Below are positions 5,721 to 63,827 of a stretch of 64,000 bases of DNA, piece by piece; positions within the stretch are counted from its first letter, which is position 1; every line of letters begins with the position of its first letter. The stretch covers positions 620,001 to 684,000 of the forward strand of contig MCFH01000019.1 in NCBI GenBank assembly GCA_002104945.1, written 5' to 3'. The stretch is from Piromyces finnis finn (taxonomy: Eukaryota; Fungi; Neocallimastigomycota). The notes under the pieces are model-generated. The model worked only from the letters and a program-made list of their open reading frames with translations, was not told the DNA's origin and did not search any database. The position numbers were made by a program, and so were the translations under genes.

Positions 5721-5773
5721 TTCGTTACAGGATGGTTATTTATATATCCTTCATATGTACCAAATCCATCAAA

Positions 5774-5970
5774 TGTGAAGATATTAACTGGATTTAAAAC
5801 AAATTCAGATAATATCTATAATTAATTAAACATAATAACTGTGAAGATATTAACTGGATTTAAAACAAATTCAGATAATATCTATAATTAATTAAACATA
5901 ATAACTGTGAAGATATTAACTGGATTTAAAACAAATTCAGATAATATCTATAATTAATTAAACATAATAA
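5774..5970. repeat. Tandem repeat, 3 x 66 bp
   Basis: Units start at 5774, 5840 and 5906; identical; no spacers; stops in all six frames. Confidence 0.95.
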
Positions 5971-7034: not shown

Positions 7035-7945
7035 AGTAGCATGCTGTATTGTTAGCACAATTCATTTTAATTTTCTTATGGTAAAATTCTTAAGAATATT
7101 TTTATTATTTGTAACATGTTCCGAAGCACCTGTATCGTATATCCAGCATGTATGATATTTATTTATATTTTTATTTAAATAATTGTTTATTTGAATGGAA
7201 TTTATATTGTGTTTTTCTAGTGTTGGTCTAAGCTCATCTAGTGTAAAAATATCATTGTAATTATTGATATTTTGCTTGTTACTATCGTATGAGATATTGT
7301 TTACTTTTCCATTAAACATATTATATTGACTATTGTGGTATTATTTGTGGCTTGACCTTCTTATATTGTGGCTTGATTTCCTATTATTATTATTATTTTT
7401 TGAATTATAGTAGCAATTTTCAGTGTTGTGATTATTCTTTTTGCAAATATCGCAGTATTTATTTTGTTTAAAATTCTTTCTAAAATTATTATTTTTATTT
7501 TTATGGAAAAATTTATCAAGGTAATCGACATCCATTTTATCTTCAGTGTTTATAAATATTTTTGGAGGTGTTATTTCATCGGCATGGTTCATAGTTTTAA
7601 TTCTTTCTTTGATAGAGTTGAATAATTCTGATGGTGTATTATAGGTATTTGATAGGATTATAATATTTCTAATATTGCTGGGTAATGAATTATACATGTA
7701 CCGCATTTTTTCTGCTTCGGTAAGTTGTGAATTATTTGATTCCATTAATCTAAAAAGTTCCATCATGTTGCTCAGAGTTTTAATAATTTCTTTTTCATTT
7801 CTTGCCTTCATATTATTAATCTTGTTTAACCAGCCTTCAAGGTTTACATCATCGTCTTGTTTAAACAGTTCAGTTAACTTGCTCATGACTTCATAAGCTG
7901 TATTAAGTCCTTAGGTAGCTATGAATGTTATCATCTATACTTCCA
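7035..7945 (-). pseudogene. gag: Ty1/Copia gag + protease fragment
   Basis: ORF 7341-7886 with YCDICKKNNHNTENC knuckle; ORF 7062-7319 with WIYDTGASEHVT Copia protease motif. Confidence 0.85.
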
Positions 7946-7967
7946 TATTTAAATAAATATTTCAAGT

Positions 7968-10304
7968 ATGGAAGAATCTCAAAATATACAATATTTTCCT
8001 GTTGAGGATATTGATTATATATGTAACGAAATTTCTAAAAATTTTAAAGAAAATAAAAGATTGACACCTTATATTGATCAAGTAAATAATAAAGTAAGAA
8101 ATTATTTAAAGAAAAAAATCAAAGCAGAAGAAATTGACTGTGATATGTTTGCTAAAATAATTGTGGATAAAATCAAATTTCGTATGATAAAAGAAAATAC
8201 TCATGTTGGTATTTTAGCAGCTCAATCAGTTGGTGAACCTGTAACACAATCAGCATTAAGTTATTTCCACAAATTATACAAATGATAAAAATGAATTGAA
8301 AAAATTATAAATTAACCCATAATAAAATGGATTATAGTATAATTCATTTATATTTTAAACCAAATTATGATATTTTATTTAAGAAGAAAATAGCAAATCA
8401 AATGGAATACAGAATATTAAATGATGTTATTTTAAATGTTTTGTATAATGGATTTACACTTCGTTTTTATTTTTGTCGTCATTCCATATTTAATTTAAAA
8501 ATTCATCCAAAAGCTATTTTCGAATATGTAATTAAATATTTAGAAAACACCAATAATATATTGTTTACATGGGAATCATCTCTAAATCTTGAAGATCTTT
8601 ACATTAAATTTATTCAACCTGCTTAAAAGATTCTTGATTGGTTTGATGATCATAAAATTGATTATATAGTTGATTCAGATATGCTTTGTGTTTTTAAACC
8701 AGGAATTAATGAACATATTTGTAAAATATTGACCTTAAAACAGATTATATATTTAACAATAAAACAATTAAACACACGATAAAATAAAAACAGGAGTTTC
8801 TTTTTTAAAAATTATCTTCTTTATTAATGGTTAGAAATAAAATAACAATTACATCGATTCAATTGATAAAATTTACACGTATTTATATTTTTTCATAATT
8901 ATATTCTAATATATTATTCTATTTAGATAAACATATATTTAATATAAAATAAACAAAACTAATCTAATTAAATAATAAAATAATAAAACTAAACTAAAAC
9001 TAATTCATTATACTTTTAATTCAATTTGAGTAAACTCAAAATTGAATAAAGCTCATGTATTATCTATAAATTAATTTAATATTATCAATACTATTCTTAA
9101 TATATTTCCTATTGAAATATAAACACATCTATTTTTAAAACTCAGTTAAAATTATTAAACTATTCTAAATTTAAATAAGAAAGTATATTATTATTAAACT
9201 ATTCTAAAATTAAATAAAAAGTATTTAAAGTTATTATGAATATTTAAAATATTTGAAATATTTAAATTTAATTAAGATTCTTTTGTTCCTTAAATTTAAA
9301 TATTTATCTTTATTTAATTTTGACGGAATTATTATAAAATAATTTATTATTAAATTATTCCATTGAATATTAAAAATTTCATAGTTAATTTTAATAAATA
9401 TTAATTTATTATTTAATAATTAATAGTTAATTATTAAATAATCTAAAGATATATATTATATCTTTACAATATTAATAATAATGATAATGAAGAAAATAAT
9501 TATAATTCTGATAATAAAAATAATAATATTAATATTAATAATGATGTAGATATAAATAATAGCATTAATAACAGTATTATTGAATATGATGATAATGAAA
9601 GTAATTTCCTTATAGATTATTTTAATGAACAGAATTTTGAATTTGAAGAATTTGATAATATTGTTTACTTGATAAGTCATTTCGTTAATTTAGATAATGA
9701 AGATATTAACAAAGTATTAAATAATGTTGTATTATCAGGAGCTAAAGATATTGTTAAATTTACATTGAAAGCTATAGGTAATGAACATTATATAGAGATT
9801 ATAGGGTTAGATTTAGATAAACTTTTTAAAGAAGAATACATTGATAAGGAACAATCTACATATTTAGTCTATGCCAATTTATTCAATATTGATTTTGAAT
9901 TACATAAAAAGAATATTTTAAAGCAGTTAATAAAAATTGTTAATGCAGATATTACTTCATATAATATGCAACATATAGAATTATTAACTAATTTCATATG
10001 TCGTGATAATACGATTACACCACCGATGTCTTGTTTTGGAATGAAAAATGGTAATTATTCTTTTATATCTCGATTATCTTTTGAAGATCCTTTTAGGGTA
10101 ATTCAGGATGTCTTTTATGGTGTCAGAGATTATTTAACATCTATATCTTCAAAGTTAATTACCGGAATATTCAATGATGAAGAAGAAAAGAATGAAAATA
10201 CAATTAATAATGAAAACACTATTAATACTGAGAATATTATTAATAATAAAAATACAGAAAATAATGAAAACAATAAAAATATTGAAAATACTAAATATTA
10301 TTAA
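7968..10304 (+). pseudogene. RPB1: Viral-type DNA-directed RNA polymerase largest subunit, C-terminal part
   Basis: VGILAAQSVGEPVTQSALSYFH (trigger-loop region), HIELLTNFI, RLSFED...DYLTSISSKLITG. Broken by stops/frameshifts and a solo LTR; no CTD heptads. Confidence 0.88.
8720..9468 (+). repeat. Solo LTR (family B) inserted in viral RPB1
   Basis: TGTAAAA...TCTTTACA with 5-bp TSD ATATT (8715-8719 / 9469-9473). Confidence 0.88.
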
Positions 10305-10565
10305 TAATGAATAATATTTCATATTTTTAATTTTTATTTATTATATGTTATAATATTTTTTAAATAATATTAATTTAAATTTTTTTTTGTAATTTAAAAG
10401 TAAAATGTTTATGATATTATAATATTTGTAATAAAATAATTATAAAATTTTTTAAAAAATAAAAATATGAAAAGTTTTTAAATAATATTTTGTATATAAT
10501 AAATTATTTAAATATTTTAAATAATTTAAATAATTTTTATTGAATTATTAATAATATAAATCAAA

Positions 10566-13500
10566 TTATAATAAATCGCTAATATTATTATTTAATACCT
10601 TTAATAAATTTTTAAATCCTGTTTCTACACAATGATAATAATAATATTGATAATCTAGTTTAGGCTTGATGATATCTTTATTTTTAGTAGCTTTTTCACA
10701 TATATTCTTATACAAGTCTAAAGACATGATTTTATCACCTAATAAAGTTGAATTTTTATTAAATGAAAATGAATTGGTATCTATGATAATATAATCTACT
10801 TTTTCACCAATTTTGTAATCCAAATTATACATTTTATGATTATTAACAAATAATAAGACATAATAAGATTTGTTGACATACTTTGGTCCAATAGACAATT
10901 TCATAATCAACTTTTCTAATTGTACGTTACCAGAAAGAAATTTATTTTTCATTTCTAATACCTTATGACGTATCTCTTTTTCTGGATAATCAAAAAGAAT
11001 CATGTATAAAAATATTTTATAGTAATCTCTAATGAAAATACAAGTATTTTTTTTTAATAATATCTATTCCTTTAATATAAAACTCTGATGCATTTGCCAA
11101 AACACCACAATACTTTTTTTGGATATGATCAACATTCTTTTAAATGTGTTTTCATATTTTAAATGCATTCCATCTGGTAATTGATTGGTAACATATTCAG
11201 CTACTGAATGACAATCTTTAATAAAGCTGTTTACATCGAAATCTTTAGAATTACTTTTATCTTTATCACTTTATATATTATTATTATTACCATCATCCTT
11301 ATTAATATCCCTATTATTAGAGATATTATTTTTATTTAAATTATTTTTATTATTTAAATTATTTAAGTTTTCCAAATATTCTTTTTTGTATTCGATTAAG
11401 CATGAATCTGTATCACCATAAGTTACTCTAAAATTAGTATTTCCACAGATTAAATCAATAGTTTTATTTAAAGTAGTTTCTTCCCATTCCTGTAGTACAT
11501 TCAGCACCTGGTAAGAATCTTAAATATTTTAAGGAACTTGAACCAAGACATCCATAATGGTTCAATTATGGTAGCACCTTTATAACTAGAAATATCCGAA
11601 TTATCAATATCAACACATATATTATTGTCATAACAATATTTATATAACAAATTGGCAAACTTTTTATTCTGACCATTTTTATAAACTTTATCCACACGAA
11701 TTCTTGAAGTTTTAGCGATTTCTAAGAGTTGAATCCATTGATACGAAATGTTAAATATTTCCAGAGTTAAGATGGAATCATAATACAATACATGGCTACT
11801 TTATTTAAAGAATCATCAGTATTTTCATGAATTAAGTAAAACATATCTTTGTAGGGAAAATCAATCTTGTGCTTATTCAATAACTGTTCTGATACATAAT
11901 TTAAACTAGCAGAAGGTAAATTTAAAGATTTTGCACATTTGAAAATATCAATTGCTATTCTTTCCGAAATCTTAAGTTCAACTTCATTACTTGAGGTAGT
12001 TATAAATTTTGTAGGCATATTCCGAATTCTATTAGCTTTGAAAGATGAATCCTTATCATCAATGATTAAATGCATACTAGTTCTTTGTGCAAAATATCTG
12101 TAATCAAATTCAAAAGCATTATATCCAATAATCAAATCAGGATCTAAATTTCGAATTTGTTTAAAAAATTCACAAATTAAGTCATATTCAGATTCAATAA
12201 AAATAATATCATATTTATCATTTAAAACATTATTTTTTAAAAGTTTATCTTTTTTTGATTTTTCATGTTTAATAATAAATACTTCAATTGGTTCTAATAA
12301 AGTGGTAAAGATATCAAACGCCACAGACTAATATCTTTAATGTAACTTAAGCCATAAATATTATTATTTAAGTTACACGAATTATATTACAGAAAAAGAA
12401 AATGGGACATAATTTATTTATTAATAATTAAAGTTTAAAACAAAATAAATTATTAATTTGTTTTTAATGTTTAATAAATAAATTAAAATTCTCAATTCAA
12501 ACTCATAGTTTTAGTATTGTTTTTCATAGAAATAGATAAATAATATATATGATTAATATATCAATAATACATAGGCACATATTCAAATTGAATAATACTT
12601 AATTTGAATTGCCAATTGTATTTTATTAAAAATAGTTATAGTTTAAATATTTATTAATAATTAAGATTTTAGTGTAGATTTTAAATAATAATATATAAGA
12701 AATAAATAGTTATAATATAATATAAATGTATTGAGGAAAAATATAAATAGAAGATATTTTTCATCATTTTATCGATATAATTGTTATTAACAATTTTATT
12801 ACAATAAATTAATAAAAAACTATTTTTTATAAAACATATTTATTTTGTATTGTTATTGTGATAGGTTAGATATCCTAATCTATTCAGTTTAGTGTCTGAC
12901 TTAACAAAAGTTTCCTCTTTTACTGTATTGTCATTATTATTTAAAGAATCATCTTTAATTAACTTAACATTTACTACACTATTATTTAACATACTTTTTA
13001 ATTTATTATATCTTTTTTTAGTATCAGAATGATATGTAAAATTATTATTTAAAAGTTTCTTTAATCTATTATATCTATTTTTTACTTCAGTATTATTATT
13101 TATAATAATAGTGTCTTTATTAACATCATTACCTTTATTATTCATAACTTTATTATCGTTGATATCAATATTAATATTATTATAATTATCATTATTATTT
13201 ATATTAGATTTAATATTATAATTATTATTATTATCTGACTTATTATATATATTACTATTATTAATTACATTTTTATTATTATCATATTGATTATTAATAT
13301 CATTATTTTCACTATTATCATTATCTATATTATTATTGATATTATTTTCATCAAAAAAATTAAACTTTTTACATGAATCATTAAATTTATTAATATCAAT
13401 AAATGAAATAAATGAAGGATCTATTTCATTTAGTTTTAATTCGTTTACTATATTATTTTTATCTTTATATTTAACACAAATGGTAATGTTTCTTTGGATG

Positions 13501-14077
13501 TCTTTATAATGATATACAATACTAATAGTCGATATAAAATCATTATATAAATAACTATTTGGAAAAGATCCAAAATCATGAGACATACATTCAATATCAA
13601 ACGATAATATGGATGATTCTGGATATTTATCAATATTTTTTGCATGAATACTTTTATAGCTAACAATATATTCATTATTAAAAGTAGTATAATGATCTGA
13701 ATTATTTTCTTGATAACTTTTCGAATAAATCCATCCAATAGTATCCTAATTTTGAATGGAAAGAAAAGATGATACTATATCCACATTAAATAACGTTGAT
13801 TGGAATGAAACATATTCAGAATATTTTTTAAATACACTTTGTAAATTGTTTGTTCTCCATCAAGATAATGTCGTAATAATATTTTTTTCAAGACTTCTTT
13901 TTTATTATTAATATAATCGAAATTTCTATTTACCGAATCAGAATATTTAAATAAAGGAAAATCCTTAATCACAACAGCTATTTTACTATCATTTTCATTG
14001 TAACCAAATCCAATAATAATAGGATAATCATCCTTAATGAACAATTCCCAATTATAAATATAACAAGTTAATGACAT
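10566..14077 (-). pseudogene. polB: Viral-type family B DNA polymerase (RNA-primed), fragmented
   Basis: ExoI AFDI, ExoII PDLIIGYNAFEFDYRY, YKGATIIEP, YGCLG...AECTTGMGR, YGDTDS (11403-11420), KK/YCG, IKGIDII; no C-terminal Zn-finger module. Confidence 0.92.
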
Positions 14078-14315
14078 TATAATTAATAAATTATATTTTT
14101 GTTATTGTATTTATTTATTAAAATTATCTGTTTATTAATATTCATGTATATATGCATATATGTATATGTATATATATATGTATACATTTATGTATATATG
14201 TTTATGTATATATAATAACAATATATTTTAATATATATAATATCTATACCAAATACAATTATTTTTTTATATGTTTTCCATATATATATTTTAAATATAA
14301 AAAATCATTTATAAT

Positions 14316-14537
14316 TTACAATAAAATATATTTATCATTAATAATCAGATTATATATGTATAAATAGTGAATAATATCAAAAGTATATTCCATATAATCT
14401 TCATTAGCATTCATATTGATTATATCCTTAAAAAGTTCATTAACTTTATTCTTATATTCTGGATTATCAAGATTTTCGGAATCAAAATTAGAAAATTCAT
14501 AATTTTTAATAATAAAGATTACATATAACATTGGCAT
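14316..14537 (-). CDS. Hypothetical protein (possible viral orphan or fragment)
   Basis: 73-aa ORF with protein-like composition inside the viral cluster; no motif recognised. Confidence 0.35.
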   Translation of the reverse strand: MPMLYVIFIIKNYEFSNFDSENLDNPEYKNKVNELFKDIINMNANEDYMEYTFDIIHYLYIYNLIINDKYILL

Positions 14538-14539
14538 AT

Positions 14540-14755
14540 TTAATTTGCTAAATCGGATTTCATTTCATCGGAAGTATTCCTATTAATTATATGGACCTTT
14601 ATAAAATTTAAAAATTCTTTAATGTATAAAGAATTATTATACTTTCCAGTAGTAGTGCTTATCAGTTTGTACTGGATTTGTTGAAGTATAAATTTTTCAT
14701 AACCATTACTTTTTCTTTTTAATTGGTGAGTAATTTTAATAGAATCTATACTCAT
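14540..14755 (-). CDS. Hypothetical protein (possible viral orphan or fragment)
   Basis: 71-aa ORF directly upstream of the 14316-14537 ORF, same strand; no motif recognised. Confidence 0.35.
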   Translation of the reverse strand: MSIDSIKITHQLKRKSNGYEKFILQQIQYKLISTTTGKYNNSLYIKEFLNFIKVHIINRNTSDEMKSDLAN

Positions 14756-15085
14756 TATATTTATTAAATTATTTTATTAAATGAATTGGATTATATTAAT
14801 CATTTTATATTATTTTTTTTCAGTTACTTATTTAATAAATTAATTGATATATATATTACATACATAATATATGTATATTATGGATATATATATATTATAA
14901 TATGTTATTAAAATATAAATAAATATAATTATTTATATTCAAATTTTAAATTTGAAAATAGAAATAATAGAATTAATAAATATAAATAAATATTTTATTT
15001 ATAACAAATGATTTAATATTTTATATATTTAATATTTATAAACAATAAAAAAATAGACTAGTTCATTCTTCTTTAAAGAATTAGT

Positions 15086-15814
15086 TGTAAAGATATAAAA
15101 TATATCCTTAAATTATTTAATAATTAATTAATTATTAAATAATAATTTTGACATTTTAATGAAAATTTATTTGTAAAATTTATTATATAAATTTTATGGA
15201 ATAATTAAATAAAGATTAATTTTAAAATATCAAAGTTAGAAATAAAATTTGAATAAATATTTAAATTAATGGATAATTAAATTTAAATATTTTAAATATT
15301 CAAATTAAATCTTAAAAAGTTTTTATTTAATTAAAATTAGTTTAATAACTTTAGCGTAGTTTTAAATTAGCATTTTTAATAGCAAATATATAATAAATAG
15401 TATTATTAATATTTAATTAATATATAGAATATATAGGTAATACATGGACTGTATTCAATTTGTAGTTTACTCAAATTGAATCAAAAGTGTATTTAATTAG
15501 TTTTAGTTTAGTTTTATTATTTTATATTTAATTAAATTAGTATTAAATTAGTTTTGCTTATTTTATATTGAATATATGTATAATTAAATAGAATAGTATA
15601 TTAAAATATAATTTACAAAAAATATAAATACATGTAAAATTTCTTGATTAAAACAATGTAATTGTTATTAACTATTATTTAGTTAATAACTAAATAAAAT
15701 TAATAAAAGAGATATTTTAAATAATTTGTTTTCTTGTTTCTTTTTATTTATTTTGTGTTTGTTGTTTTATTGTAAAAATTTTATAATTTGTTTTGATATA
15801 TAAAACCTTTTACA
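15086..15814 (-). repeat. Solo LTR (family B)
   Basis: Diverged inverted copy of 8720-9468; TGTAAAAG start on the minus strand; flanks TTAGT / TTAGC (4/5 TSD match). Confidence 0.8.
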
Positions 15815-15848
15815 TTAGCATTTATCCAAATCACTACATTTTTAAGAA

Positions 15849-16439
15849 ATGTCTGAAGTTATTAAAATCGTATCACAAAAAAGATTAAACGAATTAAAGC
15901 GTACAGTAATTATTGATGATAATGATCTTGTTTTAAATACTATATGTGATAAAGTTTCAATAGATGAAAAGGATAAATCATTTACTGTTAAAAAATTGAA
16001 AAAAACCATAGAATTAATATATAAATTACTTGGTGATTTAAACAATGATGAATTTCCTTCAGAAATCACCAAGTCATTAAAACCTCATATTACAAGTAAA
16101 TTAAGTAATACATTTTGTTTTAAACAACCATCTGAAAATAATAACAGTAATAAAAAAATTATTTTTGAAAGAGCACCAATTATATTCTATTCAAATATTC
16201 AGTTAGCATTAGAAATTCCTTACAAAGAAATTAAGAAGGATATTAAACTTCAAAAATTACCAGAACATTACCATTTCTTTGTATTCCCATTAACCATGGA
16301 TGATAAAGAGTATATTATTACTTACGCTGAAGAAAACAAATATTCAAAAAGAGAAATCATTGAAATATTACTTGATGATGTTGAAGTTAGTAAAGACGTA
16401 CTTTCCCATGAAATTAAAACCAAATATGGATTTATTTAA
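15849..16439 (+). CDS. Hypothetical protein, 196 aa, intact (probable viral orphan)
   Basis: Uninterrupted ATG-TAA ORF with globular-type composition between PolB and D5. Confidence 0.6.
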   Translation: MSEVIKIVSQKRLNELKRTVIIDDNDLVLNTICDKVSIDEKDKSFTVKKLKKTIELIYKLLGDLNNDEFPSEITKSLKPHITSKLSNTFCFKQPSENNNSNKKIIFERAPIIFYSNIQLALEIPYKEIKKDIKLQKLPEHYHFFVFPLTMDDKEYIITYAEENKYSKREIIEILLDDVEVSKDVLSHEIKTKYGFI

Positions 16440-17119
16440 TAATATATGTTCTTTTTATTTATTTTTATTACTATATTAATAATATTAATAAACTATTTAA
16501 TAATAATTATATATAAATGTATGTAAATAAACCAATTATGATGTCATCTATTCATTCCTATATTATTATTATTATTATTAGATGAATAAGATACCAATAG
16601 GATATAAGTTATAAATTGAATATGAATAGAATATTAATAAATTATTAATAATATGAAATTAATATATTAATAAAAAAAATAAATATATATTTATAGGTAT
16701 ATATTATATATAAACTATATATAATTGTAATTTTATAATTTAAACATTTTATATATTTTATATATTACAAATCATTAAATTTTTTTAAAAATATATTATA
16801 AATAAATTAAATTAAATTATAAAGTAAACATTAAATATAATAATAGTAATAATATTATATATATTGATATATTAATATATATCAACATATATATATAATA
16901 TATTATTTTTTTTTAAAATGAAAATTTTTAATTTTACTTTATGTTTACAAAGTTTTTCATTAATAGTAAGTTTATTTGTCTATTAAATGGTAGCAGTAGC
17001 AATAAATACACAGGATATTGATACAAGTAGTATTAACATATACCATCCAATTGTATACTTTTTATTTATCCTTTTAAAGTATGAAGAAACTAAAAGAACA
17101 AAATCTTATTCTTTGATTT

Positions 17120-18730
17120 GATTGCTAAATACCTAGAAACCTACAATATAAAAGTTGATAATGATGAAAGTATTGAAAAGAATAGAATCCCAAATGAAGA
17201 AATTGGAATTCTTAATAATCGATTAAATAATATAAAGATTTAAGGAAACAATACTTTGGAAAATAAAAATTCAAAAATGACATTATTGATATTATTTATA
17301 GTTGTATTGATGAATTTGGTTTACGTATTGTAAATATTTCTCGATTAATAACTATTAAAAAGTATTATGGTAAAACTTCATTATCAAATCATTCTGTATT
17401 CAATATAATTTTAAATTTGGGATATTTCGTGTATTGTGACAAGGAATAAGGAATAGTATAAAATCTTTTACAGTATTAATGGATGGAAATCAATAAGTTC
17501 TTACGACATAGCTAAAGAAATAAATTTGTATTTGACATGAAATCTTAAGAATATGTGTATTGAATACAATATATCTTTAGATGGCATCACTAATGAATTA
17601 ATGAATTTCTTTACCAATCATACCATAACCTAAAATCTCTTGGAACTACTCGAAACCTTCTTTTACACCCATGATTTTATTAAACGAATTGACAAATGTA
17701 ATGTATTAAGATTCGAAGATTGCATTTATGACTTTGATATTGGAGCTCCACGTCCTGGACGTCCTAATGATTTTTGTCTTAAGTCAACCAATTACAATTA
17801 CTATAATGATAATAGGGATAAAATGGAAGAAGTCTATCAATTCTTAAGAGATATTTTTGTTGAGGAAGACTTGATAAATTATGTATTGAAAGTAATTGCT
17901 TCTACTCTTACTCTTGGTAATAAATTACGTTCCATTTCATTGGATCTGGTCGTAATGGTAAAACTACCTTTACCAATATGTTAAGACTTGTACTTGGAGA
18001 TTATGCTGCTACTCCAAACGTATCCTTATTTCTAGGAAAGTCCACCAATGCTGATAAACCAAGTCCTCATATGATGGATCTTAATAAATGTAGAATTTCG
18101 ATTTGTGAAGAACCAGATGCTCGATCCATTAATATCACCGGTGATGCTAAAGCCATTACAGGAAATGCCGGATATATTAAGACTAGATCTTTGTATAAAT
18201 ATTTGCAAACTGTTTATGTTGATTTATTACCAATTATCAATACCAATGATAAATTAATTATATCCAATTTGGATAATGCTTTAATTGATGGAATTTTGGT
18301 AATTCCTTTCACTCAACGTTTTGTTAACAAAATGAATATCTCAATATTATCATCCACTCAAAACATTAATAACTCTTCCATCAAGCATGCCAATACAATG
18401 TGGCAAGGCTCTCATGTTCAAAGCTATGCTGAAGCATTAATCCACATTTTGATCAAAAATTATCAAAAAGACTATACAAGTTGAGATACCTCATAGTGCA
18501 TCCATGCTACAAAGCATTTCATTATGAGATGTGACCATATAGCCAGATTCTTGGAAAAGTATATTATTGATAAAAATGATAACTCTGCCATTCCTATTGA
18601 TGATGTTTATTCCTTATGTAAAGGTTGGTTTAAAAATTTTGTTTCTACTAGAGTTCTAAGTTACAGTTTGGAAGATTTCCGTATGGATTTAATTAAATAT
18701 AATAAGAATAAAAAGTGTAATGTCATATGA
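17120..18730 (+). pseudogene. D5: D5-like primase / superfamily 3 helicase
   Basis: Walker A GSGRNGKT (17942-17965, across a frameshift), Walker B RISICEEPD, PIINTN, VIPFTQRF; degraded 5' part. Confidence 0.9.
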
Positions 18731-19364
18731 TCATTTAGTTGGATCTATTATTGGATATAGATTGGCAAAATTAAAAAAAATATTTAATTGCTGTTTATTA
18801 ATTAAAATAGTCTAAATTCTATATATTATTAGTTTTATTTAAATAATATGTGTTATTATTATTTTTAATTATTTATTAAAATAAAATTTTTAAATGTTTA
18901 ATTTTATTAAATAAATAATATTTGTATATTTTGCTTATATTTATTTTAGCAATATTAAAATTTTAATATAATTTTATTTATTTTTTAAAAAATAATTCAT
19001 AATATAAATACTTATTTATTTTTATTACTAATAATTATTGTATATATTATATGCAAAATATTATAATTAACTTAATTATTGACTGTTTATTTACATATAT
19101 ATTAATGTTTATTATATAGTTAAAATGTTGTTTATTATATTATAAAATACTTTAATTATGTTTTTAAAATTAAATCTAATACTAAGTATTTAATATGTAT
19201 TATAAATGGTATAAATATTATATATATGAATATGAATATATATATATGTATATATGTATTTGTTAATATAACTATTATTTTAAAATGTAAAAAATAAATA
19301 TTTGAATATATGTAAATTAATTTTTTTTAAAATATTTTTTTAATAATAAAAAAATAATTATAAT

Positions 19365-19849
19365 TTATTTTTCATTTAGAGTTGTATGTATTCCGATGGA
19401 ATCTAAATAAGAATTCATAATATTAAAACTATTTAAAATTGTTAAATATTTTGTTGTGGAATTACAACATGTTTCAGATATACTTATTGAATGACAAATA
19501 TTACAATATATAATTTCCATAACATCTGTATTATTTCAAAACATATCCTTTAATATGGCATTGACACCATGTGTTATTAAAGCATCCTTTTCCATTTCTT
19601 CGATTCTTAAGCCACCATTATATTAGCCTTTCCTTCCGTTGGTTGCTTACTAATAGAATTAACACTTCCGATAATACGATAAAACATTTTTTCTTCTTGA
19701 CGTTGTAAAGCTGTATAATAACAAACGCCTACAAATGCAGATCCTATATTTATTCCTGTTTTAGGATCTATCATATTTTCCATGATTGGTATTCTACTTT
19801 CAATAAATGTTGATCTGAAATTTTTTATATCTTTACTTTCTATGGAAGC
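19365..19849 (-). pseudogene. RPB2: Viral-type RNA polymerase second-largest subunit, C-terminal fragment (not in the ORF track)
   Basis: Manual translation: MIDPKTG...AFVGVCYYTALQ...KQPTEGKAN/NGGLRIEEMEKDALITHG...YCNIC...TCC; one frameshift and one stop. Confidence 0.85.
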
Positions 19850-21656
19850 CTGACTATCCTAACGGTACAAGAGAACAATATTATTACTATAAGAAACATC
19901 CGAGAATTTACGGAGAATTTACGGCTCCAAAATATCTAACAGTGCCGTTTCGTCCCGAGGATTTCAAAGATTTATCCGCCCTTAAAATCCAGAATAACCA
20001 AGTGTATTTCAAAATACTCCACCTCGATACAGAAACATAGATCAAGATTATAAGTACCTTAGATCACTCAAGACGTATTTACAGACCTACACACCCAGGG
20101 TATCTGAGTCACAAATCAGGGACGCCATTTTAGAAAGAGGGGGCAAGGAAGTTAAGCACTGGTATTACAACGTATTCAATAAAAAACTAGACAATCAAGA
20201 AGTCGAGTGGAATGGCACAACCACATGGAGAAAACTTAATTTATTCGTTCATCATTTTGAAAAGGAATTTTGTGAGAGTACTATAGATGAACAAGAATTA
20301 TTTTGGAGAAACATTAAACCTATTCATGAAATAAACGAAGAAAAATTCGAAAATCTAGTGGAAAACGAAGAACGATACGCCGATAATTTAAATAAATCTT
20401 TTTACAGTAGATTTTTAAAGATTTCAAAGAACTGTAATAACGTTCTCGTTAAAGAATGTTTAAAAAAACTATCTCAACTCCCAGCTTACAACCCACGGGA
20501 AGATTTCGATGAACAAAATTTAAAAAATACCCTAATAATATAGAACATACTCTACAATCAGGGGAAACTATTCCAACTGAGGGACCTACACAACATAGAA
20601 AGAAAAACTTCTATTATGACAAAATAATTCTAAATGATGACCTTATCTTCAAAATGAAAAAACTTAAGTTAGAACCAAACTACTACCCTTATTTCCTTAA
20701 TATTCAAGAAAATAGGTCGGATGAATCGAAAGAAATATTAAGTAAAAGAAACTATGTGGAAGATCCCGATTGGGATAAAAAATATCTCGACAGAAAACAG
20801 AGAATTATCATAAAGGGAATGAATATTCAAAATGACGAACAAACTCATAATATTGAATCAGTTATTAAGAGGAACTTCAAGAATTCATTATCAAGGAAAT
20901 TGAAAAACTTCCTGAGGAACTTCAACTATATAAAGAAGTTTTTCAAATTCCAAGAACTGGAAGAGGCAAATAAAATAGAGAAGACTAGGACTAGCTCAGC
21001 TTGCAATGTTTTTAATGTCCCTAAGAAAGATGGAATTTTAGAACTGTCTTCAACTATGTAATGGTTAATAACTGCTTTCATTACAATAGGTATCCTATCC
21101 CAAAAATAATTGAATTGGTCCATAGGGCTGTTATATACAAGTATCATATTCTCTTGGATCTTCGGAATGCATACAATCAAATATATTTGGAACCTAGATA
21201 CCGATTCCTAACTAGTTTTAGATTTAAGAATCAAACATATCAATGGAAAGTTTTACCATTTGGTCTTTCTACTGCCCCATCAATATTTCAATCAATACTT
21301 AATTTACTTTTGGCCAAACATCTAAACAAAGGAATCGACGCATATTTGGATGATATTCATATTTATGAAAATACAAAGGAAGAATGTCTTAAATTATGTG
21401 CTTTCACACTGAAGAAGTTTCAAGAAAATAATTTTTATTGCAAACTTGAAAAATGTGTATTTTTCCCTAAAGAGTTCGAATATTTGGGATATAAAATTAT
21501 TTTCGACCAAATCAAACCCATTTCAAACAAAACGGTAAACCTTAAAGAATGTTTTACATAAAAGGAATACCAACAATTATATGGATTCCTTAATTATTTT
21601 AAGGATTACATTAAAAACTTCACTGAGAAGACCAAAAATATTTCACAAGGACTTTC

Positions 21657-22060
21657 TGTAAAAGTATAAAATTTAAAACAAATTTTATACTTTTAATCAA
21701 TTTGAGTAAACTCAAAATTAAATAAAGCTCATGTATTATCTATAAATTAATTTAATATTATCAATACTATTCTTAATATATTTCCTATTGAAATATAAAC
21801 AAATCTATTTTTAAAACTAAGTTTAAATTTAAATAAAAAAAGTATTTAAAAAATATTTTAATTATTTAAAATATATGAAATATTTAAATTTAATTAAAAT
21901 TTTTTATTCCTTAAATTTAAATATTTATCTTAACTGAATTATTATAAAATAATTTATTATTAAATTATTCCATAAAATTTATTCAAAAATTATATAATTA
22001 ATTTTACTAAATATTAATAATTAATTATTAAATAATCTAAAGATATATTATATCTTTACA
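21657..22060 (+). repeat. Solo LTR (family B, internally deleted)
   Basis: TGTAAAAG...TCTTTACA; TSD CTTTC; removal restores QGLSNKTTKW. Confidence 0.9.
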
Positions 22061-58043: not shown

Positions 58044-61000
58044 TTAAGTTTGGACTTCGTCCCTGGAAGTCTCATTGTGCCAAGTATGATAATGAACTAA
58101 ATTCTTTTGATGAACATTTCTTTCAGCTATTGCACCACTAATAGGGTCACATAATGTAGCAGTATTAAATTCCATTTTAATAATACGGAAAGGTCCCATG
58201 AAAAATGGATCTAACTTTCTTCTTGAAAAATTTCTAACAAGTACTAAATCACCAGCTGAGAATGCAGTATTCATTGAAGCTTTTTGTTTTCTTCTATTTT
58301 CCCATAATTTATTAGCATTCTGAATATTTTTGGTAACTTCAATAATCCATTCCCAATGTGTAGTAAATTTATTTATTAAATATTCTTCTGGAGTTTCGTA
58401 TTCATTTTTATTATTATATTCTATCATAAGTTCAAATGGTTGAAGGTCAGTACGACCATATAATAATTCAAAACTAGAAAATTTTGTTACTTCATTTTTA
58501 CAAGTACGTAGAGCCCATAGAGCAGATGGTAGAACTTCGTCCCATTCTTTATTTGAGTTTCCTAGTAGTCGAATATTTTTAACAATTTCTCTATTACGAT
58601 TTTCTACTTGCCCATTTGTTTCTGGATGATAAGTGCTAGAATATTGAACATATATACCATATAAATCAAGGAAGCCTTTAGTAGCATCAGAAGTAAATTG
58701 TGGACCATTATCAGTAATTAATATTTCCGGAGTACCATGTCTAGAAAATACATTTGTAAGAAATTTTATAACATCCGTAGATTCAATTGACTTTAGTGGT
58801 TCAGCTTCAACCCATTTGGTAAAATAGTCTACAAGTACTATTATATATTTATTATTATTTTTAGTTATTGGTAGTGGTCCAATAATATCTAAACCAACTC
58901 TAGTGAATGGTAGACCTGGTTTTGTAGCAAATGATTCAGTACCACTATTAATAGGTTGAGGTCTCTTTAATTGACAATCATGGCAAGTTTTTACAAGTAG
59001 TTCTACATCTTTAGACATATTTTTCCAATAATAATTTTTCTTTAATCGGTTATAAGTTTTATAAAATCCTTCATGACCTATTGAATGTGCAGCTAATAGT
59101 AATTCTATTTTCTCTTCTTTATCTTCGACAACTTTTCTGATATTGTCACCATCTTTATAGTACTTTATTCCATTTATTAAGATAATTTTCTTTTTAAGAA
59201 AGTCTTTAATTTTATTACTTCCTGGATATTCATTAGAATTATTTTCACTGGTGGTACCAATAGATGTATCAGTTACTTCAGTTACAAGTACAGCTTCTAA
59301 GTCAGTATCATTATCTAATACTTCTTCTTTTTCATTTTCAAATGAAACGGAGGATATTTTTATTTTATTTTCTATATTAAAATAATTATTTTTATCAATA
59401 TTAAAAATATTAGATGGTTCAAATGAATGAATTTTATTAAGATTATTATTATTGTGGATGTTAGAATTATAATAGTTAGTTGTAGTATTTTCATTTAATT
59501 TAGGAAAATCATTTTTATTTATATCTATTTTATTATTTAAGTAGCAAGTGTTATTTAAGTCATTGATATCACTATTCATTACTTCATTATAAACAATATC
59601 ATTATTATATTCAGATAATTCATTTATTTCGTTATTTTTAAAATAATTATTATTCTTGCTTTTATCAATATCATTTTTAAAATTTATATTTATATTTTTA
59701 CTCCCATGTGAATTATTATTAGTAGAGATATAATTATTTAAATCAACATTATTAAGTTTAGAATATTTAATTGAATTTACACTTTCATTAACACAAGAAT
59801 TTTTATTAAAGTCAATATTTTTATCAATATAAGGATTAATATTGTTATTTTTATTTATTTCATTATCATTAATACATGAATTATTAAAATTACAAGAATA
59901 AACTATATTTTCATTATTTTTAGAGTAAAAATCTTTATTTGAATTTAAAATATTATTTTTAGTAGTTTCACCATCATTATTATTAAAGGTAGCTAGTGAA
60001 ATTTTTATATCATTTTTATTGTCTGGTATTAGTCTAGATAATGCATCAGCGACTACATTTTTCTTTCCTTGTTCATATTTGACTTTTACCTTGAGCATAC
60101 TAAGTGTAGTAACCCAGCGTGTTTGACGAGCATTATTTGGTTCTTTATTATTAAATAAGCCAACTAAAGGTTTATGGTCAGTATATAATATCGTTTCTTC
60201 TTTATTCCCACTTATATAAGATTTAAATTTCTTACAACAATAAAAAGCTGCGGTTCCTTCTAAGTCAGTTATACTATAATTAATTTCACTATCATTTAAA
60301 GACCTACTAACATAATGAATTGGATGTTCAACATTATTTTCATCTTTTTGAAGTAATACACCACCAATACCATTAAGTGATGCATCAGTTCTTATAATAA
60401 AATATTTATCATAGTCAGGATATTTTAAAATAGGAGACTTAATCAGTCTTTCTTTTAGTATTTGGAAACTTTGTTCAGTTTCAGATGTCCATTCAAATTT
60501 CATACCCTTTTTTAATAATTTAAATAATGGATGAGCAATTTGGGCAAAATCTTTTATAAACTTCCTGTAATATCCTATAGCTCCTAAAAATGATCTTAGC
60601 TGTGTAAGGTTTGTTGGTGACTTCCAATTTTTAATAGTTTCAATTTTCTTTTCAACTGGTTTGACACCTTCTACTGATAGAATATGACCAAGGACCTCTA
60701 CTTCTTGTTTTAAGAAATGACATTTTGAAAGATTTGCTTTTATACCATTTTCTTTTATTATATTAAAAACCTTTTGAAGATCTAATATATGTTGTTCAAG
60801 ACTTGGAGAAAATACTAAAAGGTCATCCATATAAACAAATAAACATTTTCCAATAAGTGGTAGAAATATACGGTTCATTTCTCTTTGAAAGGTTGCTGGA
60901 GCATTACATAAACCAAAAGGCATTACTTTGTAATTATAATTTCCAAATATTGTTGTAAAACATGTTTTATCAATATCTTCTTTCTTCATTGGTATTTGAT

Positions 61001-62756
61001 GAAAACCAGAGAATAAATCCAATGTAGATAAATATTTTACATTATTACCAATAGAAAATAATATTTCTTCAATATATGGAAGTGGATATGAATCTTTTAT
61101 TGTTATAGAATTTAATTTTCTATAATCTACACACATCCTCCATTTTCCATTCTTTTTTGGTACTAATAAAACTGGAGAAGACCAAGATGATTGTGATGGT
61201 TCTATTAAATCATTCTTTAAAAGCTTTCCTATTTCTTCTTTTAGAATTTCCATATGTTCTTTATTAGAAATACGATACATTTTCTGTTTAATAGGATCAT
61301 CTTGATTTAATTTAATTTCATGAGCTAATAATTTTGATTTACCCAAATCATCAGTATCATTAGCTAGAACATCTATATTAGTTATTAAAAGATTCTTCAG
61401 TTGGTCTTTTGCTTCTTTTTGTGTTTCATCAACTATTTTATTAATAAGTTGTAATTTAGAATCACTAGTAGTTTTAATTTCTAAATCTTGATATTTATCA
61501 TTCTGACTAGTTAAGTAATATATTAATGCATCTTGATTAATTTCTTCATCAAATTCTTCTATTAAGTTAGTTTGATTCATTTCATTAATACTTTCAAAAG
61601 ATCCAATTTTGTGAATATCATCAGTTTTCTGATATAAAGTATGATCAGAAAAGTCCATAATTAATTTCATATTAGCTAAAGTTTCTACACCAATTAAGAC
61701 CTGGAATATATCTTCTTTTTCAATAAGTCTAAATATTTCTTTAGATGTTATATTACCAATAGTAATTTCAATTTCATATAGATGCGACTCAATAGTAGTA
61801 TTGGAATAAGCTTGATATAAAGTTTCTCTAATTTTTGAAACTGGTTTTAATGGAATATTATTTTCTAATAAGAATTTTCTAGTAATCATATTTATAGATG
61901 AACAGGAATCCAAATATACAGTAGTTTCTATTCCTTCTATTTTGCATTTTGATTTCACAACTTTATCTTTTCTTATGGTGGAAAGAATTGTAGATTCATC
62001 CTCAATAATTTTAGTAAATTTTAATGCTTTTGAAAGTTCTGTTTTTAATTTAGGACTAATTTCAAGTAGTTGACCTATTGTTATATTTGCAAATTTTTCT
62101 CCTATATCTTTAGTTATATTATATTTTTCTTGATCTGCTGATATAACTAATCTTTTTGTACCTTTTTCATTTGGTACATCTTTTTCTTTTTGACTTGGAA
62201 GTTCAATCTCTTTTGCTAATTCTATTATTTCCTTTTCTCGTTCTTTTTTATTATTTCGTTTAGCTTTATCTATAGTGGGTTGATTAATGAATGAAGGATC
62301 TAATTGTTTTAATGCTTCTGTTGAATTAGTGTTATTATTAATATTATTATCATTAATGTTATTATCTATTTTATTACTTTCATTATTATTTATATTAGTG
62401 TCATTATTCATACTCATATTATTATTAATATTATTATTATAATTATTATTAAGATTATTATTATTATTATTATTTTCATTTTCAATTACAGTCTCCATTT
62501 CTACTTCATTATTTGGAACTTCAATTATATCTTCATAAGTATTATTTAATGGTTCTCTAGTCTCATTACTTGGAACTCTAATTGGTTGTGGATTGTCACT
62601 TAATTTTTCTTTGGTAGTTCTTTTATATGGTTTAATATCAGTATTCTTTTTAGCTTTTCTTATTACTGGAATAGTAATTTCTTCATTTACTGGTACTGAT
62701 ATTGTAGCAAAAGTAGTATTGGTTTGATTTATGGGAGTATTCCTTCTCCCACTCAT
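58044..62756 (-). CDS. pol: Intact Ty3/Gypsy Pol polyprotein, 1570 aa (PR-RT-RH-IN)
   Basis: VYLDSCSS protease, YMDD RT, TDASLNGIG RNase H, HSIGH...CHDC zinc finger, DDE core, GPF motif; ~250-aa Asn-rich linker. Confidence 0.96.
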   Translation of the reverse strand: MSGRRNTPINQTNTTFATISVPVNEEITIPVIRKAKKNTDIKPYKRTTKEKLSDNPQPIRVPSNETREPLNNTYEDIIEVPNNEVEMETVIENENNNNNNNLNNNYNNNINNNMSMNNDTNINNNESNKIDNNINDNNINNNTNSTEALKQLDPSFINQPTIDKAKRNNKKEREKEIIELAKEIELPSQKEKDVPNEKGTKRLVISADQEKYNITKDIGEKFANITIGQLLEISPKLKTELSKALKFTKIIEDESTILSTIRKDKVVKSKCKIEGIETTVYLDSCSSINMITRKFLLENNIPLKPVSKIRETLYQAYSNTTIESHLYEIEITIGNITSKEIFRLIEKEDIFQVLIGVETLANMKLIMDFSDHTLYQKTDDIHKIGSFESINEMNQTNLIEEFDEEINQDALIYYLTSQNDKYQDLEIKTTSDSKLQLINKIVDETQKEAKDQLKNLLITNIDVLANDTDDLGKSKLLAHEIKLNQDDPIKQKMYRISNKEHMEILKEEIGKLLKNDLIEPSQSSWSSPVLLVPKKNGKWRMCVDYRKLNSITIKDSYPLPYIEEILFSIGNNVKYLSTLDLFSGFHQIPMKKEDIDKTCFTTIFGNYNYKVMPFGLCNAPATFQREMNRIFLPLIGKCLFVYMDDLLVFSPSLEQHILDLQKVFNIIKENGIKANLSKCHFLKQEVEVLGHILSVEGVKPVEKKIETIKNWKSPTNLTQLRSFLGAIGYYRKFIKDFAQIAHPLFKLLKKGMKFEWTSETEQSFQILKERLIKSPILKYPDYDKYFIIRTDASLNGIGGVLLQKDENNVEHPIHYVSRSLNDSEINYSITDLEGTAAFYCCKKFKSYISGNKEETILYTDHKPLVGLFNNKEPNNARQTRWVTTLSMLKVKVKYEQGKKNVVADALSRLIPDNKNDIKISLATFNNNDGETTKNNILNSNKDFYSKNNENIVYSCNFNNSCINDNEINKNNNINPYIDKNIDFNKNSCVNESVNSIKYSKLNNVDLNNYISTNNNSHGSKNININFKNDIDKSKNNNYFKNNEINELSEYNNDIVYNEVMNSDINDLNNTCYLNNKIDINKNDFPKLNENTTTNYYNSNIHNNNNLNKIHSFEPSNIFNIDKNNYFNIENKIKISSVSFENEKEEVLDNDTDLEAVLVTEVTDTSIGTTSENNSNEYPGSNKIKDFLKKKIILINGIKYYKDGDNIRKVVEDKEEKIELLLAAHSIGHEGFYKTYNRLKKNYYWKNMSKDVELLVKTCHDCQLKRPQPINSGTESFATKPGLPFTRVGLDIIGPLPITKNNNKYIIVLVDYFTKWVEAEPLKSIESTDVIKFLTNVFSRHGTPEILITDNGPQFTSDATKGFLDLYGIYVQYSSTYHPETNGQVENRNREIVKNIRLLGNSNKEWDEVLPSALWALRTCKNEVTKFSSFELLYGRTDLQPFELMIEYNNKNEYETPEEYLINKFTTHWEWIIEVTKNIQNANKLWENRRKQKASMNTAFSAGDLVLVRNFSRRKLDPFFMGPFRIIKMEFNTATLCDPISGAIAERNVHQKNLVHYHTWHNETSRDEVQT

Positions 62757-62765
62757 AAGTTTAAA
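62731..62765 (-). promoter_or_regulatory. -1 programmed ribosomal frameshift signal (gag-pol junction)
   Basis: T TTA AAC (62765-62759), 6-nt spacer, then GTGGGAG-AAGGAATA-CTCCCAT hairpin; pol is in the -1 frame. Confidence 0.78.
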
Positions 62766-63827
62766 TGATTTTGATTAGAGTTTATAAGGCCTTGTTTTTC
62801 CATTTCTGCAAGTTCTTGGAATGTATATTTGCAATCTTGCATTTTGTGGCCTACTTGTTGACATCTAAAACATTTATTTCTTTGAGACTGGTTAAACATA
62901 TTCACTTGACTTTGAGATGTAGTTTGATTAACTTTATTAGTAGTAGTATTCATTTTATTAGCATTAACATTATTAGAATAATTAGTGGAATTTTGATATG
63001 ATTTATTTTCTTCCATATTGGAATAATTATTGTTATTAAATGTACTAGAATTATAAGGGTATTTACTATAACCATTATTATATGCATTTTGATCACCTTG
63101 ATAGTTGTTATAATTATTGTTATAATTATTATTATAATTGTTACTATAACTATTATTATTAGTATTGAAATTATTTGGGTAATTATTTCTGTAATTATTT
63201 CTCTTATTAAAACGTTGATTTCTCATATTATAGTTTCCATTGAATCGCATATTATAATTATTATAATTATTATTATTATCATAATTATTATTATAGTTAT
63301 TATTGTAGTATCCATTATAAGTATATGGACTATCATTATTATTAAAATAATTATAATTAGTTCCACCACTATGTTGAGTAAATAGATTATAATTTTGGTT
63401 TTGATATGGATCAAAGTAAGGTTGGTTATCAGTAAACATATTTACATTATGATACTGAGGAACTTCAGTTGCTGATTCAGCTAATTCGGCAACCTTAAAA
63501 GCGGCTTCTATATCTTTAGGTTGGGCAGTGATTACTTGAGTTCTGATAAAAGGACGAGAAATAATGGAATTAGTATAATCCTTAACAGTAACGAATAGTT
63601 GGGATCCAACATTAAGATTTTTATATAAGTTTCCGTATCTCCAGTTGAAATCCTTAATACTTTCTCCTCTTCTAATTTTTAGAGACTTAACATTGAAGCA
63701 TTTTTCTTGAGGCGTGATTTCTAAGTATTCTTCAATAGCCTCTTTAATATCTTCGATACTAGGATAATTTGTTCCAGTATCACTTTCTGTTTTTAAGTCA
63801 TCAATGATTCCTTTTAATCTACCTTGG
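62753..63827 (-). pseudogene. gag: Gag, interrupted at its 5' end by a family B LTR
   Basis: KCFRCQQVGHKMQDC knuckle; the first ~16 codons of the tracked ORF are LTR sequence. Confidence 0.88.

Follow-up and report, generated by a model that had tools for sequence, protein, structure and literature searches.

A broken fundsalphavirus gene core among retroelements in the gut fungus Piromyces finnis

Main finding

The window analyzed here is a stretch of 64,000 nucleotides from the anaerobic gut fungus Piromyces finnis (assembly GCA_002104945.1, contig MCFH01000019.1, positions 620,001 to 684,000). It contains a broken RPB2-D5-ORF197-PolB-RP1c gene core which we assign, with a probability of roughly 0.93, to the fundsalphavirus lineage, as a copy that probably became part of a Piromyces chromosome and was put out of action there by inserted retrotransposons, a deletion and point damage. 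PolB denotes a family B DNA polymerase, D5 a viral helicase, and RPB2 and RP1c parts of an RNA polymerase (RNAP). The five genes stand in this order, four of them are broken, two carry inserted repeats, and the copy nests among those already published from P. finnis.

Fundsalphaviruses are Pithovirus-related endogenous elements of early-diverging fungi, described from 14 species (Gong, Zhang and Han 2020, PMC7017919; cited throughout from the accessible parts of that paper), with 26 copies in Neocallimastix californiae and 6 in P. finnis. Their shared genes are D5, a D6/D11 helicase, an S-adenosylmethionine (SAM) methyltransferase, RPB2, RPB5, RP1n and RP1c. According to Fig. S2 of that paper, whose gene rows were taken from the PDF text so that their layout can be off, the order in Piromyces, Neocallimastix and Anaeromyces is RPB2-D5-(small gene)-POL-RP1c, and one P. 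finnis row holds exactly RPB2, D5, POL and RP1c between Ty3 domains. The window agrees with the family in its PolB clade, its host group, the split of RPB1 into RP1n and RP1c, the shared order in which D5, RPB2 and RP1c flank POL, its stops and frameshifts and its retroelement neighbours; nothing separates the two. Moreover, the named relatives sit on contigs of 246,453, 168,386, 127,315, 68,043 and 64,180 bp, sizes which match fundsalphavirus contigs in the same paper. An earlier note on this DNA had considered a possibly undescribed lineage; since lineage, host group and gene order were all published in 2020, the locus is already known in kind and by itself adds little. The features are as follows (window positions).

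7062..7910, minus strand: Ty1/copia gag and start of pol (Retrotran_gag_2, Pol_BBD), adjoining the 5' end of RP1c and bounding the relic on the left
7968..10304, plus strand: RP1c, stand-alone C-terminal subunit of a split RNAP largest subunit; broken by 1 stop, frameshifts near 8280-8310 and a 0.7-kb insertion
8737..9469: AT-rich interspersed repeat (730 bp) in the Asn-rich linker of RP1c; copies 70-76% identical at 15085-15794 and 21659-22060
10566..14077, minus strand: family B DNA polymerase of the RNA-primed type (Pfam, alignment, tree); dead
12305..12885: 580-bp repeat within PolB, its ends matching 53645-53523 (90%) and 52455-52349 (74%), beside a copia reverse transcriptase
14316-14755, minus strand: possible broken small gene between PolB and ORF197, in two open frames
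15085..15794: second copy of the AT-rich repeat, inverted and intergenic (window self-comparison)
15849..16439, plus strand: ORF197, intact conserved gene (196 aa) of the gut-fungal element, with 31 homologues
16987..18766, plus strand: D5-like superfamily 3 (SF3) helicase without a detectable primase domain; dead, with 5-6 stops and 5 frameshifts
19368..19852, minus strand: last 160 codons of RPB2, broken and ended by a gypsy element; shares 70% identity with the intact gene at locus L102
19860..22250 (right end approximate), plus strand: Ty3/gypsy fragment with RVT_1 at 21025-21558; right boundary of the relic

Gene content of the relic

The window is AT-rich and the relic is confined to 7.9-19.9 kb, with the layout RP1c(+), PolB(-), ORF197(+), D5(+), RPB2(-). 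A Pfam profile search of the 54 long open reading frames (ORFs) of the window returned RNA_pol_Rpb1_5 at 7953-8282 (E 1.2e-8), DNA_pol_B_exo1 at 11770-12327 (E 1e-15), DNA_pol_B at 11274-11519 and 11067-11270, D5_N at 17634-17981 (E 3e-7) and RNA_pol_Rpb2_6 at 19610-19858 (E 5e-7), matches that bear out the identities of the four viral hallmark genes claimed within 12 kb. Outside the relic the matches of long ORFs were to retroelement domains, save for a few weak ones below the cutoff. None of the 54 ORFs matched a D6/D11 helicase, SAM methyltransferase, RP1n or RPB5; retroelements cut the relic on both sides.

The polymerase is broken by roughly 7 frameshifts and by stops, and at 11555/11556 a deletion of 108 codons takes out motif A and most of motif B. 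Its exonuclease piece is 93% identical to P. finnis ORX42240 and has 17 relatives among 327 candidates, 10 of them metagenomic and 7 named, the latter all gut-fungal (Piromyces finnis, Piromyces sp. E2 and Neocallimastix). An intact relative matches DNA_pol_B and DNA_pol_B_exo1 only, that is, no protein-primed PolB, and lineages with full-length genes are only 54-84% identical to one another. We built a tree of 25 rows, comprising the window, 13 gut-fungal or gut-type relatives, 10 giant-virus metagenome PolBs picked by eye for spread from 48, and 1 archaeal outgroup. The window is sister to ORX42240 (Shimodaira-Hasegawa-like approximate likelihood ratio test support 99) inside a 14-row gut-fungal clade (support 100), separate from the 10 giant-virus metagenome PolBs and the archaeal PolB. 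The long branch that had been expected for this lineage is there, with 1.7 changes per site on the stem of the gut-fungal clade; the end branch of the window measures 0.13 versus 0.028 for its sister row. Of note, UniRef labels three of the virus-derived PolBs (P0001, P0002 and P0005) as host DNA polymerase delta.

The D5 remnant is 86% identical to an intact protein of 592 aa (P0121) and has 31 relatives among 649 candidates, 30 of them at E<=7e-25. D5_N is found in 19 of the 20 full-length relatives (562-722 aa), together with the SF3 helicase and a C-terminal Pox_D5-like domain. The gene had been called a primase-helicase; the primase part was not borne out, as no primase family appeared among the 12 families matched at E<=0.1 in these 20 proteins. 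In the predicted structure the N-terminal 220 residues would be mostly helical and run into D5_N, and the best fold matches of the model are D5 proteins from nucleocytoplasmic large DNA viruses (NCLDVs), short ones of Solivirus (608 aa) and Cedratvirus (650 aa) being among the matches. Several gut-fungal genera also have D5 proteins of another group that lack the primase and stand further off (P0096-P0104, P0106, P0107 and P0109; 55-61% identity). One member of this group lies on 16 contigs of up to 687 kb; the group could represent a separate family of elements or a gene that has been domesticated.

RP1c is 48% identical to an intact 500-aa Neocallimastix protein (P0046, residues 4-497). The N-terminus aligns best to archaeal A''/Rpo1C, and the window gene starts 80 residues ahead of the GxxAAQS motif, compared with 77 in whole 500-aa relatives. 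The search returned 26 representatives, of which the closest full-length one heads a cluster of 57 members; the 15 listed are all Neocallimastix, and 12 of these 15 are full length (500-503 aa), many on small scaffolds. Since such full-length, stand-alone relatives exist, RP1c is a whole native gene of ~500 aa, split from the rest of RPB1 near the archaeal A'' start, and truncation was rejected as the cause of the short RPB1. Accordingly, the description of the gene as RNAP largest subunit is right as to the RPB1 domain and too wide as to extent. Stand-alone RP1c proteins of 416-496 aa also occur on metagenome contigs (P0054, P0058, P0059, P0065 and P0069), among the nearest non-fungal matches, and may mark free-living sister viruses.

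RPB2 is likewise a second subunit by its RNA_pol_Rpb2_6 match, of which only the last 160 of at least 884 codons remain. A scan of GTDB with D5 yielded locus L102, a 5,134-bp contig with an intact D5 and RPB2 pair, whose DNA is collinear with window positions 17228-19849 over D5, spacer and RPB2 (69% identity over 2.6 kb), ending at the gypsy element. The two motifs quoted earlier as strongly shifted are both present in the translation, and only one of them characterizes the lineage: TQSALSYFH is common to the four full-length Neocallimastix RP1c proteins checked (4/4), whereas GGLRIEEMEKD is private to the window copy, because the intact RPB2 of L102 reads GGLRIGEMERD. L102 itself is mis-binned in a metagenome-assembled genome of the archaeon Methanosphaera, which accounts for an archaeal name on a database protein of the D5 cluster; searches of the bin gave nothing close to PolB, RP1c or ORF197.

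The fifth gene, ORF197, had been overlooked. It has 31 homologues among 427 candidates, the named ones all from Piromyces, Anaeromyces or Neocallimastix. No fold match was found in BFVD at E<=0.001, the best VIA match has a Z of 5.2 with a model of predicted template modelling score (pTM) 0.45, and the best Atlas score, 0.81, is at lead level only. Near its place the rows of PMC7017919, in the accessible parts, hold only unnamed or loosely named genes. Between ORF197 and PolB, the possible small gene at 14316..14755 gave no Pfam match at E<=1 in three frames and is not recognisably the DnaJ of published fundsalphavirus rows.

Decay and inserted repeats

Frameshift-aware alignment of the four broken genes to intact relatives covered 2,148 codons, among which it counted 8 stops and 16 frameshifts; these counts are approximate, and one frameshift lies within an insertion. 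It had been stated that all genes are decayed, which holds for RP1c, PolB, D5 and RPB2, and not for ORF197, with zero breaks. The intactness of ORF197 is no evidence of selection, since, with breaks occurring at a rate of one in 90 codons, the gene would escape all of them with a chance of ~0.11. With a PolB lacking motif A and a D5 in pieces, the window copy is unable to code for a functional polymerase, helicase or RNA polymerase, and could neither replicate nor transcribe itself.

The claim that the genes have no evident introns held up, because both large interruptions, in RP1c and in PolB, are repeats that recur elsewhere in the window; introns were thus ruled out there. The insertion in PolB is likely the end of a copia element, a copia origin suggested by its matches. 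The AT-rich, non-coding repeat family, which may be MITE-like (miniature inverted-repeat transposable element) or solo-LTR-like (long terminal repeat), sits in viral and retroelement genes alike, and the Ty3/gypsy fragment at the right boundary itself carries a copy (21659-22060). No terminal repeat bounding the window copy was found. The other retroelements of the window are broken, excepting an unbroken gypsy pol frame of 1,576 aa at 58044-62774 (minus strand), likely a recent insertion. There are also two short tandem arrays, one of three 66-bp units (5771-5970) and one of ~10-12-bp units near the first gypsy gag (2795-2891).

Integration, which we regard as likely, fits the retroelement context, the repeats shared between the rest of the window and the interior of RP1c and PolB, and the 93% identity to P. 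finnis copies. Taken together, the PolB and D5 relatives, the D5 fold, the PolB tree and the published record (PMC7017919) support the proposal that the relic is endogenous, virus-derived, related to Nucleocytoviricota and from an anaerobic gut fungus. A poxvirus or mirusvirus affinity, suggested by motifs only, was rejected, as published trees disagree with it.

Some observations weigh against our assignment. Missense changes at invariant D5 columns amount to 3 of 80, compared with 0-5 of ~90 in leave-one-out controls, that is, not above background; thus inactivation may be recent, or some of the breaks, frameshifts among them, may stem from errors in the assembly, although the retroelement frame of 1,576 aa that runs through the window without a break speaks against an assembly that is faulty throughout. 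Furthermore, Pithovirus, cellular Pol delta and Mycodnaviridae are absent from our 25-row PolB tree, and the deep placement is therefore taken from published trees.

A more radical objection is that the locus consists of degenerate host paralogues (Pol delta, Pol I-III) or is a chimera with contaminant DNA, in line with the UniRef name "DNA polymerase delta catalytic subunit" on P. finnis relatives and with the top PDB score of the RP1c profile, which is Pol II RPB1. Against this stand the stand-alone RP1c, the linked D5 helicase, an order conserved across genera and window-shared repeats inside the genes, and published trees put these proteins with NCLDVs (PMC7017919); we regard it as very improbable.

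Searches for further members

Scans of IMG/VR with the window D5, with PolB, D5 and ORF197 alignments and with the intact RPB2 found no close member, although these scans were pattern-seeded and hence weak. A JGI metagenome scan kept 80 loci, one of them close (L001, 3.4 kb), and GTDB gave nothing with PolB and only the L102 contig with D5. The search of sequencing runs found one DNA run with 0.56 of the query words and listed no RNA run. Among the top matches in the openly accessible literature, subscription journals not being covered, no paper dealt with intact or extrachromosomal fundsalphavirus copies. The accessible parts of PMC7017919 do not mention the missing D5 primase domain, ORF197 as a conserved gene, intact metagenome copies or a ~42-kb unit; the recurrence of intact PolB and D5 alleles on ~42-kb public contigs is possibly new.

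Nature of the parent element

A giant virus as the parent, as had been proposed, is not borne out by the intact relatives, which point, indirectly, to units of ~40-54 kb. At slightly less than even odds, it was a large Pithovirus-like virus with virions, of which gut-fungal genomes captured only the block for replication and transcription, its copies then multiplying there through segmental duplication or the activity of retroelements. Such a parent comes near to what has been published (PMC7017919) and agrees with the NCLDV fold matches of the D5 model and with the stand-alone metagenome RP1c subunits as nearest outside proteins. It sits less well with full-length genes being kept at only 54-84% PolB identity across lineages, a sign that purifying selection acts on an element that replicates, with the recurrence of the same small gene set in published rows that, in the accessible parts of PMC7017919, draw no virion gene, and with the lack of a close member in the IMG/VR pattern scans. 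As for a capsid, none was found among the window ORFs by Pfam, nor by tblastn of 749 ORFs from 106 loci, a set whose own content of a capsid was unchecked, and a divergent one could escape.

We also put forward, as a tentative idea which we consider rather less probable than its negation, that gut-fungal fundsalphaviruses are living, capsid-less plasmids of ~42 kb (~40-54 kb across lineages), self-replicating and self-transcribing, reduced from a Pithovirus-like ancestor and maintained as an episome or tandem array that sheds chromosomal copies, as yeast virus-like plasmids do; the window would then be a dead chromosomal offspring. Three intact PolB alleles of 1,032-1,033 aa (P0018-P0020) occur on 17, 7 and 5 Logan contigs, the longest being 42,473, 42,285 and 42,490 bp, and the intact D5 P0121 on 36 contigs, the longest again 42,490 bp. 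However, these ~42-kb contigs are known here by size alone and as the longest per allele only, perhaps from one study or strain; for two other alleles of the cluster the maximum is only 28 and 37 kb, for another lineage it is 52.8 kb, and assembled contigs would break off in the same way where an integrated element with many copies ends. In N. californiae, a contig of 40,310 bp begins in POL and ends at D5, so that its order is that of a 31,850-bp contig circularly permuted (PMC7017919 Fig. S2), yet it belongs to a different subclade, RP1n lies elsewhere in P. finnis, so that rearrangement does happen, and the layout of rows taken from PDF text can be off. One P. finnis contig holds a pair of copies on the same strand at a distance of 53.9 kb (spacing from PMC7017919), their protein accessions 26 apart, and the RP1c cluster, with 12 of its 15 listed members full length and many on small scaffolds, also fits a living element. 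The published trees of capsid and A32 have no tip from any of the 14 host species (PMC7017919, accessible parts), but Pitho-like viruses lack A32 anyway (10.1101/455816) and, their capsid gene being divergent (PMC9546926), a capsid may have been missed. Finally, gut-fungal copies have chitin-binding genes at their sides, and in Zancudomyces POL is adjoined by a zymocin-alpha-like chitinase (PMC7017919).

An unlikely parent, in our view, is a chromosomal, self-synthesising element resembling a giant transposon that spread in the nucleus by its own integration. The many copies per genome (26 and 6, see above, including the same-strand pair) would be expected of it, but the shared gene set of the published rows (PMC7017919, accessible parts) has no integrase or transposase, no terminal repeat bounds the window copy, and an RNA polymerase of its own fits cytoplasmic life better, as is generally known from NCLDVs and yeast virus-like elements.

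In the history that we propose for the fundsalphavirus copy, the parent would have used a PolB and D5 helicase of its own to copy its DNA and its own split RNA polymerase (RP1n, RP1c and RPB2) for transcription, probably aided by the methyltransferase and D6/D11-like helicase of its relatives, as in cytoplasmic Nucleocytoviricota; PolB, D5 and the split RNA polymerase would make up the tool kit of a cytoplasmic replicon. One copy may have entered the nucleus and been captured in a retroelement-dense chromosome region, where copia and gypsy elements would then have severed neighbouring genes as the captured copy decayed. If intact ~42-kb units do replicate in cultured gut fungi, few replicons derived from Nucleocytoviricota that have an RNA polymerase and PolB of their own would be smaller, and they would be a test case for a giant virus turning plasmid. 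Such units could serve as a native replicon for the gut-fungal phylum, which is hard to engineer.

Comparison with known systems

Pithovirus, Cedratvirus and Orpheovirus have giant genomes and virions and infect amoebae. These members of Pimascovirales are the nearest named viruses in the published PolB tree (PMC7017919, accessible parts); they lack the A32 ATPase (10.1101/455816, likewise seen in part), and short D5 proteins of the size found in the window lineage occur among NCLDVs. For the gut-fungal lineage, in contrast, neither giant size nor a virion gene has been shown.

Mriyaviruses possess capsids, and most of them are not known to have RNA polymerase or PolB. Their likeness to the gut-fungal units lies in being Nucleocytoviricota relatives of 35-45 kb (PMC11253617, accessible parts). 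Mycodnaviridae likewise belong to Nucleocytoviricota and occur integrated in fungi with zoospores (Myers et al. 2026, PMC13533422), but they reach up to 350 kb, bear capsids, are placed near Imitervirales and Algavirales, and come from Blastocladiomycota and Chytridiomycota; in the accessible main text of that paper gut fungi are not named, and the published placements of Mycodnaviridae and fundsalphaviruses (PMC7017919) differ.

The pGKL-type virus-like elements of yeasts and zygomycetes are comparable in being fungal and capsid-less, with NCLDV-derived RNA polymerase, helicase and capping enzyme and with chitinase or chitin-binding cargo (Heneghan et al. 2026, PMC13348850, accessible parts). 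They use a protein-primed PolB with a terminal protein, whereas the window lineage has a DNA_pol_B/exo1 polymerase and a D5 helicase. If the gut-fungal elements do live as plasmids, they may carry chitin-binding killer cargo, and Nucleocytoviricota would have given rise to fungal plasmids a second time and independently, here with the RNA-primed PolB and the D5 helicase retained.

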